Positions 3,157 through 26,013 of a stretch of DNA of 47,211 nt are shown piece after piece (position 1 is the stretch's first letter; each line of letters opens with the position of its first letter). The position numbers were made by a program, and so were the translations under genes. The notes under the pieces were generated by a model that made no database searches, was not told the DNA's origin, and was given only the letters and a program-made list of their open reading frames with translations. The stretch comes from a virus. The stretch is taken from the IMG/VR virus record IMGVR_UViG_3300045988_030428. One strand, written 5' to 3'.

Positions 3157-4263
3157 ATGCAGCGATGTGTAAAATGCAACATGGAGATCCCCGACGGGTC
3201 TCTTTTTTGTTGCTGGTGTGGGAAAAAGCAAATCGTACAGCGCAGCCGAACGCGAGGAAACGGGCAGGGAAACGCATACCAGCGCGGGAAAACGTGGACG
3301 GCCCGTTGGACTGAAAAAACATACATCGACGAAAACGGGAAGCTTCAGCAAAAGATGAAAACGAAAGGCGGCTTTGCATCCAAGCGCGCGGCTCTGCAAT
3401 ACGCTGCAAACCCGCCCAAGGAGGCCAAGCGAAGCTGCACCCTCCGTGAATACTACAAGACATACCAAAAAGGGGATTACTTGTCTCTTTCCAACGACCG
3501 GCAGGGCGCTTCGGATAAGGCATTTCAGCGGTTGGCGGAGATCGCGGACTGCGAAATTGATAGTCTTACAATTATGCAGATACAAGATGTGATCGACCAC
3601 AACGCCAGCACCTATTACACGCGGAAGGACATGAAAACCGTTGTGTCCCATTGCTACAATCTTGCGATTGCCGAAAAGCAAACCACGGTGAATCTTGCGA
3701 AATACATAAAGCTTCCCGTCCTCGAAGAAAAGTCCCCGGAGCCGTTTTCCGATGCTGATATTAAGAAACTATGGGCGGCTTACGAAAAGGATCATTTCGT
3801 CGGATTTGTTCTGGTAATGATTTATACTGGAATGATGCCAGGCGAGCTGCTCCGGCTCAAAAAGGACATGATCGACTTTAATAAAAATGAGATTGTCAAA
3901 GGCGGCATAAAAACGAAAAAGCGCAAGGAAACGCCGATGGTTTTCCCAGATTTTCTCGCTCCGCTGCTTCAATCCTTGTGCGATGAAAGCGACTCACGCA
4001 TTGGGAACGTATGCTGCATAAACAAAGACAACTTTTACAAACGATACTATGAGTGCTTAGAGTTGGCCGATGTGCAGAAACTCCCACCGTATTCCTGCCG
4101 TCATACGACCGCAACTGCCCTCGCCTCCAAAAACATTGACCCATTTACGATCAAGGAGATCATGCGGCACACAAAGATAACGACGACGCAGCGATATGTC
4201 CATCCGGATATGAGCGGCATGATCGACGCCGTGAATCTGTTGCAAGAAGATACAAACAAGTAA
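3157..4263 (+). CDS. int: Tyrosine recombinase/integrase with N-terminal zinc ribbon
   Basis: AAGGAGG RBS. CVKCNMEIPDGSLFCCWCG is the zinc ribbon. The C-terminus ...YSCRHTTATALA...IMRHTKITTTQRYVH carries the R/H-x-x-R/Y catalytic signature. Confidence 0.9.
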   Translation: MQRCVKCNMEIPDGSLFCCWCGKKQIVQRSRTRGNGQGNAYQRGKTWTARWTEKTYIDENGKLQQKMKTKGGFASKRAALQYAANPPKEAKRSCTLREYYKTYQKGDYLSLSNDRQGASDKAFQRLAEIADCEIDSLTIMQIQDVIDHNASTYYTRKDMKTVVSHCYNLAIAEKQTTVNLAKYIKLPVLEEKSPEPFSDADIKKLWAAYEKDHFVGFVLVMIYTGMMPGELLRLKKDMIDFNKNEIVKGGIKTKKRKETPMVFPDFLAPLLQSLCDESDSRIGNVCCINKDNFYKRYYECLELADVQKLPPYSCRHTTATALASKNIDPFTIKEIMRHTKITTTQRYVHPDMSGMIDAVNLLQEDTNK

Positions 4264-4593: not shown

Positions 4594-5064
4594 CTATTTG
4601 TTATGGGCAATGCACCTGTAATACGCACAAAGCTTTTCCTCCGGGCCGGGGCCGTCCTTATCCATCAAGAACGCCCGCGCCAGCTCCGCGTAGAACTCCG
4701 GCACGTTGACTCCGAACTTCCGCGCCACATCGTAGTAGTCCGAATGCATCATGTTCATCGTCACTCCGAAAACCCAGTGCGGAATATCGTTCCCGGCTCC
4801 GCTCGCATCCGCGACGGCGGAAGTCTGCTCCATCGTCCAGTGTGGGCCGGTCGAGCCGTCGGCATTCTGCATATGCTCGGCCCAGTGTATGGCCGTTTCT
4901 CGGTCAAACGCTGCCGCATCCGGCTCGTCTGCGCGGCAGTCCAGCTTTTCCAGCCTGCGGATCGTCTTCGCGTACAGGCCGACTTCCTCCGCGCTGCCCA
5001 GCGTCACAGGTTTCTCCATGGCCTCGTGCAGCTTCGTGTAAAGTTTTTCGACATATTCTTTCAT
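4594..5064 (-). CDS. Hypothetical protein (157 aa)
   Basis: GGAGG RBS and ATG at 5064. Product: MKEYVEKLYTKLHEAM...GPHWTMEQTSAV...MNMMHSDYYDVARKFGVNVPEFYAELARAFLMDKD... Confidence 0.6.
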   Translation of the reverse strand: MKEYVEKLYTKLHEAMEKPVTLGSAEEVGLYAKTIRRLEKLDCRADEPDAAAFDRETAIHWAEHMQNADGSTGPHWTMEQTSAVADASGAGNDIPHWVFGVTMNMMHSDYYDVARKFGVNVPEFYAELARAFLMDKDGPGPEEKLCAYYRCIAHNK

Positions 5065-5068
5065 CGTG

Positions 5069-5404
5069 TCATGCCTCCTGGATATACCGGTAGAGTTTGT
5101 CCACGTCGTTCTGATCAAAGCGCAGATCGCCCAGCAGCGGGACGGATACGGTCAGCTTGTTTTCAAAGCGCGGCCTTGCCGCATTATAGAGCCGGTCAAG
5201 GTCGATGTTTCCGTCCTCGTCCATTACGCCCATCATCTTCACCGCTGGATTTTCACGCAGCTTGAGCAGCTGCGCCTTGCCTCCATCCATGATAAGCGCC
5301 AGCGCGATCCCGGCTCCAATGCCCTTGCCCGTCGGCAGATGGGGAATGATCTCATTGTCGGCGAATTTTGCCGCGCCTCGCATAGCCTGATCGATCGTTA
5401 CCAT
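5069..5404 (-). CDS. Hypothetical protein (111 aa)
   Basis: Clean ORF tightly packed with its neighbours. Product: MVTIDQAMRGAAKFADNEIIPHLPTGKGIGAGIALALIMDGG... Confidence 0.6.
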   Translation of the reverse strand: MVTIDQAMRGAAKFADNEIIPHLPTGKGIGAGIALALIMDGGKAQLLKLRENPAVKMMGVMDEDGNIDLDRLYNAARPRFENKLTVSVPLLGDLRFDQNDVDKLYRYIQEA

Positions 5405-5453
5405 AAGGACACCTCCGTGTTAAGATCGGGGCGGCTATTGCCGCCCCTTTGGT

Positions 5454-6023
5454 TTACTTGTTGCAGCACCCGCATTTCGGAAGCGGGTTGTAGAGCGTCT
5501 GCGCCGTGGTTGCGGTGCCCGTGGTGACGTCTGCCACCTGCTTGGGATAAAACGTCGCGTTGGCGTAGGTGACAATGCTGTTGTCGCCGCAGCAGCGTCG
5601 TTCGGCCTCCATCTCGATCTCGCGGTGCAGCTCGTCCTTTACAGACGCGATGTCCTGGCGGGCCAGCACGAAGCTGTCCTCAGTGCGCTGGTTGTGAACG
5701 GCCTGATCGCACAGGGACTTCCGCACGTCCTTGAGCTGGCCGTCGATGTAAGCGTACATCTCCAGCATCTTCTGATCGTTGTAGGTGTTTGCCTTGAGCG
5801 TCGCGATCTCGCTGTCCTTCGCGGCCAGCTTCTGCTCCCGATCGAGATCGTAGCGCGTGACCGGCATGTTCTCGCTGCACATGCCCGCCGCCGCAGCCGC
5901 AGCAGGGCTGCAGCCCCATCCGCCACTCAGCAGATTGCCGAGCAGGCCGAGTCCGACGCCCGCCGTGCCGATAATGCCCGTTGTCAGTGCCGCATTGGCC
6001 TTGCCATTGCTTGCGTATTCCAT
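5454..6023 (-). CDS. Membrane-associated coiled-coil protein with Cys-rich C-terminus (190 aa)
   Basis: GGAGG RBS and ATG at 6023. It has an N-terminal Gly-zipper hydrophobic segment (TTGIIGTAGVGLGLLGNLLSGGWG), a long heptad-like middle, an RRCCGD motif and a C-terminal KCGCCNK. Confidence 0.6.
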   Translation of the reverse strand: MEYASNGKANAALTTGIIGTAGVGLGLLGNLLSGGWGCSPAAAAAAGMCSENMPVTRYDLDREQKLAAKDSEIATLKANTYNDQKMLEMYAYIDGQLKDVRKSLCDQAVHNQRTEDSFVLARQDIASVKDELHREIEMEAERRCCGDNSIVTYANATFYPKQVADVTTGTATTAQTLYNPLPKCGCCNK

Positions 6024-6272
6024 AGTAGTACCTCCGATAAAATAGTAAGCTGGCCAGCTCCTATGCTCATTATGAGGCATCCACGAAGAACAAAAAACCA
6101 ACTCTTCGGCCACTTTTCGGGCACAAAATGTATAAAAAACAGCCACTCCATACGGAGCGGTTGCCTTGTATATAGAAAAACGGGGCCGGTGCAGGCACCA
6201 GCCCTTGGAAAGAATACCGAATATCCTTTTGTGCTACACACATATTATATACGCTCAGTAGTCAACTGTCAA

Positions 6273-6530
6273 TTACTGCATAACTACCTTCTCAGCTTCA
6301 CTCAGCACCTTTCGGATGCTCTTTGAGAATACAGGGAGCCTGTTTTCGATATACTTTTTCTTGAAATTCATGATCGTTATTCCGGTCAATTCGTCTGTGG
6401 CAATGTCTTTCAGATAGATTACATTCCCGTCAGAATCATCACCGTAAGAATTACTGCGGTCACCGAGTGCAATGTACAGGACGTCGAATTTCTTGTCGTA
6501 GTCGAATCCGATGTTATTCTTCTGCAACAT
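6273..6530 (-). CDS. DUF2283-like small protein (putative antitoxin partner)
   Basis: GAAGGTGAGG RBS and ATG at 6530. FDYDKKFDVLYIALGD...GNVIYLKDIATDELTGITIMNF matches the YuzE/DUF2283 pattern. It overlaps the upstream gene by 17 nt. Confidence 0.55.
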   Translation of the reverse strand: MLQKNNIGFDYDKKFDVLYIALGDRSNSYGDDSDGNVIYLKDIATDELTGITIMNFKKKYIENRLPVFSKSIRKVLSEAEKVVMQ

Positions 6531-6873
6531 ATATCGCCTCACCTTCTCCGCAGCCGCTTTTCTTGTTGTTATTAGGATATGCGGTCACAACCTCGCCCGA
6601 TCCGCCGCAGACAGACACAACAACGTGTGTATATTTGAGCTTCGGGTAGTATGTAGCAATTTTCGATTCTTTTGTGTATATCCGACGTTCGTCCAGCGGA
6701 GGGTTTGTGTCGTGACTCGGTAAAATTAGCTCCGGCTCCTTGATCGTCTCCACGATTGCGTCTACGTTTGAAACCATGATGCTGTGGTTAAGCGCCACAT
6801 GAGAATCCCACTGCTCTTTTGTGCAGAATACTTTTATCCCGCTTCTGTCAACAACTTCGAAAAAATTAGGCAT
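6514..6873 (-). CDS. DUF4258/Barnase-EndoU-RelE-like putative nuclease toxin (119 aa)
   Basis: The ATG overlaps the upstream stop (TGATG). The pattern W..H....H...IVETIKEPELI...RRIYTK...YTHVVVSV...GEVVTAYP resembles DUF4258/PBECR-type toxins. The assignment comes from motif reading only. Confidence 0.4.
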   Translation of the reverse strand: MPNFFEVVDRSGIKVFCTKEQWDSHVALNHSIMVSNVDAIVETIKEPELILPSHDTNPPLDERRIYTKESKIATYYPKLKYTHVVVSVCGGSGEVVTAYPNNNKKSGCGEGEAIYVAEE

Positions 6874-7091
6874 CAATCCACCTGCTCACTCAGGATTTTG
6901 GACATCATTGCAGGGAGTGCCTCTGCTAACTGCTCATTCACAATCACCGCAGCTACCGTTTCTTCCTGGTCGCTGTCCACAACGCCATTCGCTCCAACTA
7001 CTGGATATTTATGCTTAAATGTAAAAACAAACTCGTTCTTTGCCTCGTTCGCAGTAACAGTCAGCGAATTTGCGTAAATAGGCTTGCACAT
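6873..7091 (-). CDS. DUF3467-like small protein (72 aa)
   Basis: AAGGAGA RBS and ATG at 7091. PIYANSLTVTANEAKNEFVFTF matches the DUF3467 core (YaN...v..s..Ef.l.F). Confidence 0.5.
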   Translation of the reverse strand: MCKPIYANSLTVTANEAKNEFVFTFKHKYPVVGANGVVDSDQEETVAAVIVNEQLAEALPAMMSKILSEQVD

Positions 7092-7124
7092 TGTAGTATA
7101 ATCTCCTTCTTTGCTTTTTATTTC

Positions 7125-7153
7125 ATTATAGAACAAATTAAGCTCATTGTAAA
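7125..7153 (-). promoter_or_regulatory. Sigma70-like promoter of the three-gene moron
   Basis: Minus strand: TTTACA (7153-7148), a 17-nt spacer, then TATAAT (7130-7125). Confidence 0.55.
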
Positions 7154-7188
7154 TGCAACAGAATATTAAATTTGCAATTTTGCCACAA

Positions 7189-7211
7189 GAGCCGCCCTAT
7201 CCGGGCGGCTC
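7189..7211. terminator. Hairpin at the end of the late operon (terminator candidate)
   Basis: Perfect 9-bp stem: gagccgccc (7189-7197) pairs with gggcggctc (7203-7211). The T tract on the minus strand is weak (TTGTGG). Confidence 0.4.
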
Positions 7212-7421
7212 CTTTGCATGCTCCCGCAGTACATTCACGCACCGCGCTATGATCTTCTTGACGCCGTTTACGCTCAGGCCCTCGCGTTCGGCAATGCGTT
7301 CATGGCTCCAATCGTCAAGAATCTTCCGTTTCAGGATTCCCCGGTATCGCTCCGAAAGAATCCATTCGTCGATCAAATGCTCCCAATCGCTGCGGCTCAG
7401 ACTCGGCAGCCCCCGCAGCAT
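7197..7421 (-). CDS. Small sigma70 region-4-like HTH protein
   Basis: 74 aa. WILSERYRGILKRKILDDWSHERIAEREGLSVNGVKKIIARCVNVL resembles a sigma region 4/LuxR-type HTH. Confidence 0.55.
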   Translation of the reverse strand: MLRGLPSLSRSDWEHLIDEWILSERYRGILKRKILDDWSHERIAEREGLSVNGVKKIIARCVNVLREHAKEPPG

Positions 7422-7430
7422 ATGCCCTCC

Positions 7431-8126
7431 TTACTTGCTATCCAGCACGGCAATATTGCCCTTATTGCTGACCCTCAGCCCCAGCGCGGCGGCGATATCG
7501 CGCACCTTGACATAGTTCGTGCCGTTTTTCAGGATGCGCTCGACGGCGACCTCCTTGCCGTCCACGATCATTTTGCTTTTCTCTACCACTTCATCTTCAA
7601 ACCTTTCCAAGAATTTTTTCCACTGCTCGTTGCCAGTGGTGTGATAGTAGGTGTTCATGTCCGTGCCGACGAACGGGCGCGGGCAGAACTTCCCGGACAC
7701 ATCGTAATGCCTGATAATGTGATCCGCCGGAATGTTGTGCTCCTTCATGAGCTTGCGGATGAGCCACTCGGCATTGTCCAGCACCTTTTTCTCGAAGAAC
7801 CAGTCGGTGTCGTAGGCTCCCATGCGCTTCGGATTGACCTTCTTCGGTCTCAGCTCCACGCCGATGGAGTTCCAGTTCCGGCACTCCGGATGCAGCGTAC
7901 CATCTCCGCAGTGCCACGAAACATCCGTATCCTTTACGCACCGGTAAATGATATCGCCCTCGTCTACGGCGTAGTGCGCGCTGGCTCTGGCCTGCGGGTT
8001 TTTGAACCACTCGGCCACGCTGGCCGCAGAGCCGAGCGCACCGAAGTAGTGTACGACGATCCATTTCGGCGTGCAGCCGCCCGCTCGATGGTTGATCGGC
8101 GTGAGTGCGTCCTTAATTACCGGCAT
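7431..8126 (-). CDS. Endolysin, N-acetylmuramoyl-L-alanine amidase (Amidase_2/PGRP type) with C-terminal binding domain
   Basis: GGAGG RBS and ATG at 8126. The motifs IVVHY...SAHYAVD...SWHCG...NSIGVEL...IIRHYDVSGKFCP are typical of amidase_2. Confidence 0.85.
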   Translation of the reverse strand: MPVIKDALTPINHRAGGCTPKWIVVHYFGALGSAASVAEWFKNPQARASAHYAVDEGDIIYRCVKDTDVSWHCGDGTLHPECRNWNSIGVELRPKKVNPKRMGAYDTDWFFEKKVLDNAEWLIRKLMKEHNIPADHIIRHYDVSGKFCPRPFVGTDMNTYYHTTGNEQWKKFLERFEDEVVEKSKMIVDGKEVAVERILKNGTNYVKVRDIAAALGLRVSNKGNIAVLDSK

Positions 8127-8328
8127 TGTTCGCGCCTCCATCCACTGCGTCCTGCACCTTCTGGCTCTGCGTTCCGAAGTAGAATGCGATTACGACGGCA
8201 TACACCGTCATAAAGTCCTGGCTGATCTTGCCCACCACGGCCATGTACGCAAATACCGCCGTCAGCGTCAGCGTCACAAGGCTCTTCACGCTCAGGAGAT
8301 TCCCGAGCCGCTTGATGATCTTATCCAT
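8113..8328 (-). CDS. Holin (71 aa, two TM)
   Basis: GGAGG RBS and ATG at 8328. Product: MDKIIKRLGNLLSVKSLVTLTLTAVFAYMAVVGKISQDFMTVYAVVIAFYFG... It lies immediately upstream of the endolysin. Confidence 0.75.
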   Translation of the reverse strand: MDKIIKRLGNLLSVKSLVTLTLTAVFAYMAVVGKISQDFMTVYAVVIAFYFGTQSQKVQDAVDGGANNAGN

Positions 8329-25068: not shown

Positions 25069-25145
25069 TGGTGGGCCGTCTCGGAGTCGAACCGAGATGT
25101 TACCGGTTATGAGCCGGTCGCTCTAGCCATTTGAGATAACGGCCC
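25069..25145 (-). tRNA. tRNA with CAT anticodon (elongator Met or Ile2-lysidine type, not initiator)
   Basis: Minus strand: GGGCCGT-TA-TCTC-AAATGGCTA-GAGC-G-ACCGG-CTCATAA-CCGGT-AACAT-CTCGG-TTCGACT-CCGAG-ACGGCCC-A-CCA (77 nt). The 1:72 position is a G-C pair. Confidence 0.85.
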
Positions 25146-25937: not shown

Positions 25938-26013
25938 TGGCGGGACATGAAGGGCTTGAACCTCCGACAGGCGGATTAACAGTCCGCTGCTCTCCCAACT
26001 GAGCTAATGTCCC
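25938..26013 (-). tRNA. tRNA-Asn (GTT)
   Basis: Minus strand: GGGACAT-TA-GCTC-AGTTGGGA-GAGC-A-GCGGA-CTGTTAA-TCCGC-CTGTC-GGAGG-TTCAAGC-CCTTC-ATGTCCC-G-CCA (76 nt). Clean cloverleaf. Confidence 0.9.

Follow-up and report, generated by a model that had tools for sequence, protein, structure and literature searches.

Toxin-antitoxin systems with three components are represented by TAC (HigB-HigA with a SecB-like chaperone), paaR2-paaA2-parE2, pasABC and omega-epsilon-zeta. In these systems a toxin, of the BECR type or another, shares an operon with two small proteins, and the operons reside on mobile elements or prophages. A cassette of this general layout was analyzed in the viral record IMGVR_UViG_3300045988_030428 of IMG/VR; the term window is used here for this entire stretch of 47,211 nucleotides (nt). 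The cassette consists of three minus-strand open reading frames (ORFs), termed A, B and C, which lie between the lysis genes and the integrase of a gut prophage. In contrast to TAC, with its third component of SecB fold, protein A has no similarity to SecB. Unlike the described tripartite systems, proteins A and C are without a helix-turn-helix (HTH), ribbon-helix-helix (RHH) or AbrB domain, and gene order and families differ from all of them. The insert is best explained as an autonomous, horizontally mobile three-gene module of the toxin-antitoxin type that is carried as prophage cargo (a moron), and the sequence evidence assembled below leads us to put the probability of this reading at roughly 55%.

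Two described families come closest to protein B. PBECR2 (PF18810) comprises predicted RNase domains of MuF and polyvalent proteins, and PBECR RNases combine a His in the N-terminal helix with a C-terminal Thr/Ser configuration (Iyer et al. 2017, PMC5512222). Protein B shares with this family the helix-then-four-strand core, Foldseek matches to MuF C-terminal and polyvalent proteins, and a phage-restricted family; its residues 8-104 align with positions 18-107 of the 120-position profile, and residues 18-119 of an Anoxybacillus homologue align with profile positions 18-119. In contrast to PBECR2, B is a stand-alone protein of 119 amino acids (aa) in a three-gene operon and not a domain of a giant virion-packaged protein, and the scores of its family remain below the Pfam cut-off (at best 22.7 versus 27.1 bits). 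DUF4258 (PF14076), of the RelE/ParE BECR type II toxins, has no characterized member (PMC11980606). B resembles such toxins in being small, mobile and encoded in a coupled operon with small partners, and it matches the profile weakly but in a recurrent register (residues 38-99 against positions 17-70 of 71). The N-terminal part of the DUF4258 model remains unmatched, however, B-family scores of 13-20 bits fall short of the cut-off of 25, and the reported partners of DUF4258, which include HicB and MqsA-like antitoxins, do not comprise the pair of DUF3467 and DUF2283. Within the literature searched, papers mentioning DUF3467 or DUF2283 contained no description of this trio.

A conserved three-gene unit

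Gene A (7091..6873, 72 aa), gene B (6873..6514, 119 aa) and gene C (6530..6273, 85 aa) are all located on the minus strand and are tightly coupled. The A/B junction TGATG is a 1-nt overlap, and C starts 17 nt inside the 3' end of B. Gene A is preceded by the ribosome-binding site (RBS) AAGGAG (7108-7103, minus strand, read in the sequence), and a promoter scan returned promoter P1 (TTTACA-17-TATAAT, 7153..7125, minus strand) with 11 of 12 consensus matches. All three proteins are acidic, and the GC content of 0.41-0.48 across positions 6000-7200 compares with 0.55-0.64 in the flanks. The first-pass annotation had described a hairpin, a promoter, coupled ORFs and an AT-richer block at this site, and all of these features were found in place. 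Its view of a self-contained, separately transcribed insert in the lysis-to-integrase region is likewise borne out, as sibling phages with an empty site exist.

The cassette, with its own promoter and terminator and its translational coupling, recurs as a unit in unrelated phage and plasmid backbones. B has few homologues: a word-indexed search of 5.8 billion proteins yielded 12 clusters. Wherever B is intact, A precedes and C follows it, and such loci cover at least nine gut-phage lineages in which the identity of B descends to 48%. Across nine lineages A measures 69-86, B 119-124 and C 76-89 aa; the B-C overlap of 14-32 nt is present in 9/9 lineages, and the A-B spacing ranges from -17 to +16 nt. 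The trio is present throughout the lineage of the window (L007-L011 and L016-L036 in our numbering) and, with B at 73% identity, on the same backbone in L042. Elsewhere it is found at the end of a prophage adjoining host genes (L044), among pRha, ANT and RHH regulatory genes (L040), after an LPD3 polyvalent protein (L047-L049), antiparallel between a collagen-like tail fibre and a giant ART-PolyVal protein (L001-L006), antiparallel to holin and amidase (L037 and L038) and in the genome of Lawsonibacter hominis NSJ-51 (L039). The cassettes in L001-L006, L037-L039 and L047 thus adjoin late, lysis or polyvalent-protein genes, often in antiparallel orientation and with their own promoter and terminator. 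Inspection by eye identified, ahead of A, a -35/-10 pair at 17-nt spacing that is clear in L042, L040, L038 and L039 and less clear in L044 and L003, and C is followed by a hairpin and T-run in each of these divergent cassettes. All three genes are under purifying selection, with Nei-Gojobori dN/dS values between the window and L044 of 0.11 for A (the highest of the three), 0.07 for B and 0.04 for C. The conservation of this three-ORF unit in many independent contexts is more than chance. A search with the DNA itself returned only two unannotated faecal phage fragments, which matched a flanking gene.

Very distant versions of the trio extend its range. In L097 and L128, which carry one in the same slot as the window, the first protein (89 aa) matches DUF3467 (E 1.6e-3) and aligns with the A family (hhalign E 5e-5), the middle protein (121 aa) aligns with the B family (hhalign probability 92%, E 7e-7) and the third (83 aa) matches DUF2283 (E 4.4e-3). 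A tblastn search of PLSDB with C identified a trio on megaplasmid pDSM15939_1 of Anoxybacillus amylolyticus, whose overlapping genes are annotated by PGAP as DUF3467, hypothetical and DUF2283; it is part of a prophage and adjoins a LexA-like repressor, a KilAC antirepressor and a serine recombinase. The middle protein is homologous to B of the window (hhalign 97.3%, E 1.8e-11). The trio is also present in the cultured Staphylococcus phage phiSP119-2 (MK075005, 173-1086), with a 'hypothetical' annotation for each gene, and on the S. nepalensis plasmid pSNJS1102. The first-pass annotation had regarded DUF3467 as an unusual companion of the other two genes, a view that has to be given up since DUF3467 is the regular first gene of this trio across Bacillota. 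On plasmids of Leptospira noguchii, UPF0175 stands in place of DUF3467 as the first gene, and DUF2283 is the partner kept in every clade, Leptospira included. UPF0175 (COG2886) is predicted to act as an HTH antitoxin against PIN and RelE toxins (PMC2701414). One deletion variant (L012-L015) has lost A and codons 1-80 of B and has retained P1, the RBS and C, the latter frameshifted beyond residue 57 by the deletion of 1 nt. This arrangement fits a loss of the putative toxin that was followed by decay of its partner.

Families of the three proteins

Protein B is better described as a solo BECR-fold protein that, judged from profile and model comparisons, appears closer to PBECR2 than to DUF4258. 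The window protein scored 16.2 bits against DUF4258 (E 0.013, gathering cut-off 25) and 13.4 bits against PBECR2 (E 0.09, gathering cut-off 27.1). Nine of 11 relatives match one of these families or both in the same register, with 13-20 bits for DUF4258 and 16-19 bits for PBECR2, all below cut-off, and the Anoxybacillus homologue reached 22.7 bits over the whole PBECR2 model. The label DUF4258/Barnase-EndoU-RelE-like given to B in the first-pass annotation therefore holds as far as a BECR-type nuclease-like protein is concerned; the assignment to DUF4258 itself does not, as its cut-off is not reached and PBECR2 is matched over full length at least as well. The AlphaFold2 model (pLDDT 82.5) consists of an N-terminal hairpin, three short helices (residues 19-45) and strands at 49-53, 62-69, 81-89 and 92-101, and this predicted fold would agree with the BECR core of the PBECR clade (PMC5512222). 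Foldseek searches of BFVD with the model gave as best matches a minor-capsid (MuF-type) protein (E 6.8e-3, TM 0.53) and an uncharacterized Caudovirales protein (E 1e-2, TM 0.59), followed at lower rank by MuF C-terminal, 'nuclease' and PolyVal proteins, which are settings where PBECR domains occur.

Each of the motifs that had been pointed out in B (W22..H25....H30, RRIY63-66, VVV84-86 and GEVVTAYP93-100) is found there, and the majority do not vary across the family. A comparison that included the window, L039, L097 and the Anoxybacillus, Staphylococcus and Leptospira homologues showed that [WFY]xxH[IV]xxxH (H25 and H30) and [IV][IV]T (T97) are kept in all clades; the RR63-64 pair is not conserved in the distant ones. 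By their position in the sequence, H25, H30 and T97 are placed as in the PBECR active site, and this pattern supports B as a BECR nuclease. B is thus a predicted metal-independent endoRNase and the presumed toxin of the module. A PDB search with the B profile gave nothing meaningful (EcoRII, E 0.4), and tblastn of the window protein against GenBank phages gave no match. A separate observation concerns the protein P0012 (162 aa) in nr, from a metagenome-assembled genome of a Bacteriophage sp., in which residues 1-34 of B continue in frame into a PF25309-type domain and the cell-wall-binding C-terminal region of the endolysin. It may reflect a recombination event that destroyed B, or else a chimera created in the assembly.

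Protein C had been described as fitting DUF2283, and it is indeed DUF2283-like. The window protein itself remains slightly below the cut-off of DUF2283 (PF10049; 21.3 bits, E 3e-4, cut-off 23). DUF2283 is the best match of 16/16 relatives of C, and the Anoxybacillus homologue (41% identity, BLASTP 4.7e-14) scores 40.9 bits, above the cut-off. The domain occupies residues 10-56, contains an invariant NSYGDD loop and is followed by a more basic C-terminal tail. C is also matched by phrog_36767 (E 8e-16). A PDB search with the C profile gave nothing meaningful (TcdB, E 0.09), and tblastn against GenBank phages returned only a marginal match in a Lactobacillus phage. The 'DUF2283' that has been linked to FseA/QseM is, as we take it, DUF2285 instead. 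This link (PMC4755241) was not used. Among listed predicted antitoxins is YuzE, a DUF2283 protein (PMC12521503).

Protein A (pI 4.6) is predicted by AlphaFold2 to adopt a beta-beta-beta-alpha arrangement (pLDDT 70). The window protein had no match in Pfam at E < 1, and the gathering cut-off of DUF3467 (PF11950, 25 bits) was not reached. An exhaustive HMM search collected 27 matches to the A family at E up to 1e-3, and 12 of 25 aligned members match DUF3467 weakly (best E 0.0019). A chain of homology leads from the A-family profile A4 to L097_A (hhalign E 5e-5), from there to SPph_A (1.7e-5) and on to Anox_A (2.5e-7), which is a genuine DUF3467 protein (40.7 bits versus cut-off 25); the direct hhalign comparison of A4 with Anox_A was negative (probability 0.5%). 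The earlier DUF3467 label for A thus fails for the window protein in Pfam and is carried by the chain and gene order up to the Anoxybacillus DUF3467 protein, and this indirect connection suggests that A is a divergent DUF3467-like protein. The diverse A family offers no stretch conserved enough for alignment-based locus searches. A PDB search with its profile returned nothing, and Foldseek matches of the A model to LptE and the PP7/MS2 coat proteins in PDB were non-significant. Two candidate relationships were rejected. For A as a SecB-like chaperone, hhalign against E. coli SecB (with a SecB sequence entered by hand) gave 0.2%, and no SecB appeared in the top 50 Foldseek PDB matches listed; for A and C as paralogues, hhalign gave a probability of 0.95%. 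Among distant A-like proteins, a 'ML.YANSFS' subgroup includes one solo gene beside psuG. In L046 (132-1186), a distant DUF3467-like gene of 70 aa lies 10 nt downstream of a pair encoding a 138-aa Gp49/HigB-like protein (by motif only, with no Pfam match) and a 139-aa XRE-HTH protein, and the contig ends 37 nt later. This gene may either complete a HigBA-type module as its third component or open another trio.

The properties of A and C bear on the question of which of them would neutralize B. In the classical antitoxin-first order, A would be the true antitoxin or autoregulator, and C an accessory factor such as an adaptor, a chaperone-like helper or a modulator. As is usual for antitoxins, A lies upstream, is acidic and evolves faster than B and C, and its stop codon overlaps the start of B. 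In Leptospira its position is taken by a predicted HTH antitoxin, UPF0175, and an antitoxin-then-toxin order is given for DUF4258 modules (PMC11980606). However, DUF2283 is the sole partner kept in every clade, Leptospira among them, the start of C always overlaps the 3' end of B, DUF2283 is itself represented among predicted antitoxins by YuzE, and no DNA-binding fold is detectable in A. We therefore regard A as the antitoxin as unlikely and favor C in this role.

Insertion slot and flanking sequences

The cassette is carried by 7 of the 80 sibling phages (L053-L132) that share the downstream 189-aa gene, and 73 of 80 are without it. In six siblings the site is empty, and the leader of the 189-aa gene comes immediately after the gene resembling sigma-70 region 4 (sigma-r4-like gene); at the empty sites of L127 and L084 the terminator that precedes the 189-aa gene comes directly after the sigma-r4-like gene. 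Alignment of the window with these two phages delimits the whole insert to approximately 7216..6168 (about 1049 bp, minus strand), containing the left hairpin, P1, genes A, B and C, a second promoter P2 and terminator 1. By sequence, the 54 slots that could be measured between the endolysin and the 189-aa gene form 32 clusters. Several of these clusters contain a ToxN/AbiQ type III toxin (PF13958, E 2.9e-44), and others contain a SocA/Panacea antitoxin-domain protein, a dCTP-deaminase-like protein or DUF3800 proteins. With these alternative cargos, the slot is a hotspot for toxin-antitoxin and defence genes. In its own promoter and terminator, its deviant GC content, its presence or absence among siblings and the many alternative cargos of its slot, ToxN/AbiQ among them, the cassette resembles other phage morons and cargo slots between lysis genes and attachment site, and it is nothing unusual for this class. 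The SocA/Panacea cargo has a 92-aa partner upstream, the dCTP-deaminase-like cargo shows an apparent hydrophobic C-terminal region (read from the sequence), and for several cargos of 120-260 aa Pfam gave no match.

The left edge of the insert is formed by a hairpin (7211..7189, minus strand) with a 9-bp stem (GAGCCGCCC/GGGCGGCTC) and a 5-nt loop, which overlaps the stop codon of the upstream sigma-r4-like gene. It was not called by the terminator scan because the sequence that follows (TTGTGG) has no proper U-tract. This hairpin is about 26/32 identical to the sole terminator hairpin at the empty site in L127. At the right border, terminator 2 (6143..6160, minus strand, terminator scan) is assigned to the phage backbone because it is present at empty sites. 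In three backbones the cassette lies between direct repeats of the local terminator-like hairpin, namely in the window (7216..7185 and 6168..6140), in L040 (3660-3685 and 4605-4630, identical at 24/25 nt) and in L003 (4554-4586 and 5647-5679, 33 nt, 97% identity). These repeats hint at insertion by recombination at terminator hairpins or at a duplication of the hairpins.

Directly after the stop codon of C, the promoter scan returned P2 (TTGACA-17-TATAAT, 6272..6244, minus strand) with 12/12 matches, a feature that the present analysis adds to the first-pass annotation. P2 is trailed by two terminator-like hairpins, of which the first is a strong intrinsic terminator about 35 nt on. The putative transcript of about 65 nt (6173..6238, minus strand) would comprise a 5' hairpin and intrinsic terminator 1 (stem 6204-6183 and T-run); it has an RNA fold z-score of -3.7 and is a possible small RNA. 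Rfam contained no family matching this transcript or the leader. A role as antisense regulator of the cassette was rejected, as duplex energies were no better than those of shuffled controls. The block of P2 and terminator 1 (about 95 nt) is missing from the close relatives L028 and L032, and L044, with a different flank and backbone, has a comparable promoter-plus-terminator unit after C.

The upstream neighbours of the cassette are a Big_2 tail fibre, an Amidase_2 endolysin (8141..7431) and the sigma-r4-like gene, and downstream follow the 189-aa gene, a 111-aa gene, a DUF7841 gene and a tyrosine integrase (3157..4263, plus strand). The sigma-r4-like gene, directly after the endolysin (7421..7197, minus strand), encodes a 74-aa protein that consists of a sigma-70 region-4-type HTH alone (PF08281, E 6e-7). 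Variants of this small HTH gene open many slot cargos among the sibling phages, and in L012 a relative of it is placed downstream of C instead. The three backbone genes between slot and integrase (6023..4594, minus strand) are all conserved. The 189-aa protein combines a hydrophobic, Gly-rich N-terminal region with a coiled-coil-like middle part and a C-terminus rich in Cys (…PKCGCCNK); 357 relatives are present in IMG/VR, and Pfam gave no match. Two tRNA genes (25072-25145 and 25941-26013, minus strand; Rfam tRNA, 54.8 and 66.2 bits) lie within the structural and packaging region.

Proposed mechanism and its weighing

The following scheme would connect the three proteins in one module. P1 would express the module in the lysogen. 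Protein B would act as a metal-independent BECR-fold endoribonuclease with His25 and His30 (N-terminal helix region) and Thr97 (last strand) as predicted catalytic residues, and free B would cleave cellular or phage RNA and cause growth arrest. C would be made in step with B, because its start lies within the 3' end of B, and would neutralize B by direct binding. A is probably a second neutralizer, a regulator or a trigger-sensing component; the replacement of DUF3467 by UPF0175 in Leptospira argues for an antitoxin or regulator at the first position. If the inhibitors are lost or inactivated, for example upon superinfection or prophage loss, B would be freed, and the outcome might be abortive infection or exclusion, or stabilization of the prophage. 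By analogy, the tight coupling of three genes and their mobility would be typical of toxin-immunity modules. Toxicity, neutralization and a role in abortive infection are inferred, and type II toxin-antitoxin module is a candidate designation, drawn from operon structure, mobility, location and one natural toxin-deletion variant.

Several observations weigh against this scheme. All B members tested remained below the Pfam cut-offs for DUF4258 and PBECR2, and the Foldseek comparison of the B model with PDB gave no match at E up to 1e-3, with HigB1, Cami1 and ParE2 (RelE/HigB/ParE-type) at TM of about 0.3. The pI of B, about 5, is unusual for RNA-binding toxins. The deletion in L012-L015 is a single event that is equally compatible with neutral decay. 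No model of PADLOC-DB v2 matched A, B or C at E up to 1, and NCBIfam gave no useful matches for the trio proteins. Neither A nor C has a recognizable DNA-binding domain, which leaves autoregulation unexplained, and either of them could be the neutralizer of B.

The acidity of B and nuclease-family matches that all stay below cut-off would suit a catalytically inactive BECR domain that binds RNA or protein, with the trio as a harmless regulatory or structural accessory; an inactive PBECR domain is described in MuF of phage Mu (PMC5512222). This explanation is very improbable in view of the His..His and Thr positions, which are kept across very distant clades down to approximately 25-35% identity, the strong purifying selection and a combination of tight coupling and mobility as in toxin-immunity modules. 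A different objection comes from the PBECR domains themselves, which are proposed to serve the phage by cutting host or CRISPR RNA and not to act as addiction toxins, and which are also noted as solo proteins in phages (PMC5512222). By comparison with T4 RegB or with PBECR domains in injected polyvalent proteins, B could be a phage-serving RNase that cuts host, CRISPR or phage transcripts during infection, with A and C tuning or timing it. Its nearest structural and profile matches are indeed PBECR domains of MuF and polyvalent virion proteins, and in L001-L006 and L047-L049 the cassette adjoins a polyvalent-protein gene. However, the cassette has its own sigma-70-type promoter and is often antiparallel to the surrounding late genes, it is dispensable in 73/80 siblings, it shares its slot with ToxN, SocA/Panacea and dCTP-deaminase-type cargo, and it is also found on plasmids with no phage context in the stretch examined. 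A phage-serving role is hence distinctly unlikely, and a toxin-antitoxin-type module remains the preferred explanation.

A bolder version of the preferred explanation, which we consider possible though rather doubtful, is that the combination of DUF3467, a solo PBECR RNase and DUF2283 represents an unrecognized and widespread tripartite family for abortive infection or exclusion on Bacillota prophages and plasmids, of which Leptospira carries a variant with UPF0175. Its BECR RNase would be held inactive by two unrelated small acidic proteins, and the product of the exchangeable first gene, as sensor or regulator, would set the RNase free when a phage attacks. In this case three domains of unknown function (DUFs) would obtain a first function at once.

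The trio is a candidate for an uncharacterized three-gene variant of BECR-type toxin-antitoxin modules that is widespread in mobile elements of Bacillota. With a length of only about 0.9 kb and a cultured carrier, phage phiSP119-2, the module lends itself directly to tests of toxicity, rescue and defence. If the proposed reading is true, a slot in very common prophages of the Oscillospiraceae type in the human gut would be identified as a hotspot for toxin-antitoxin and defence genes, and a three-component architecture would join the repertoire of BECR toxin-antitoxin modules. It would also provide a shared functional context for the uncharacterized DUF3467, DUF2283 and stand-alone PBECR2-like proteins.

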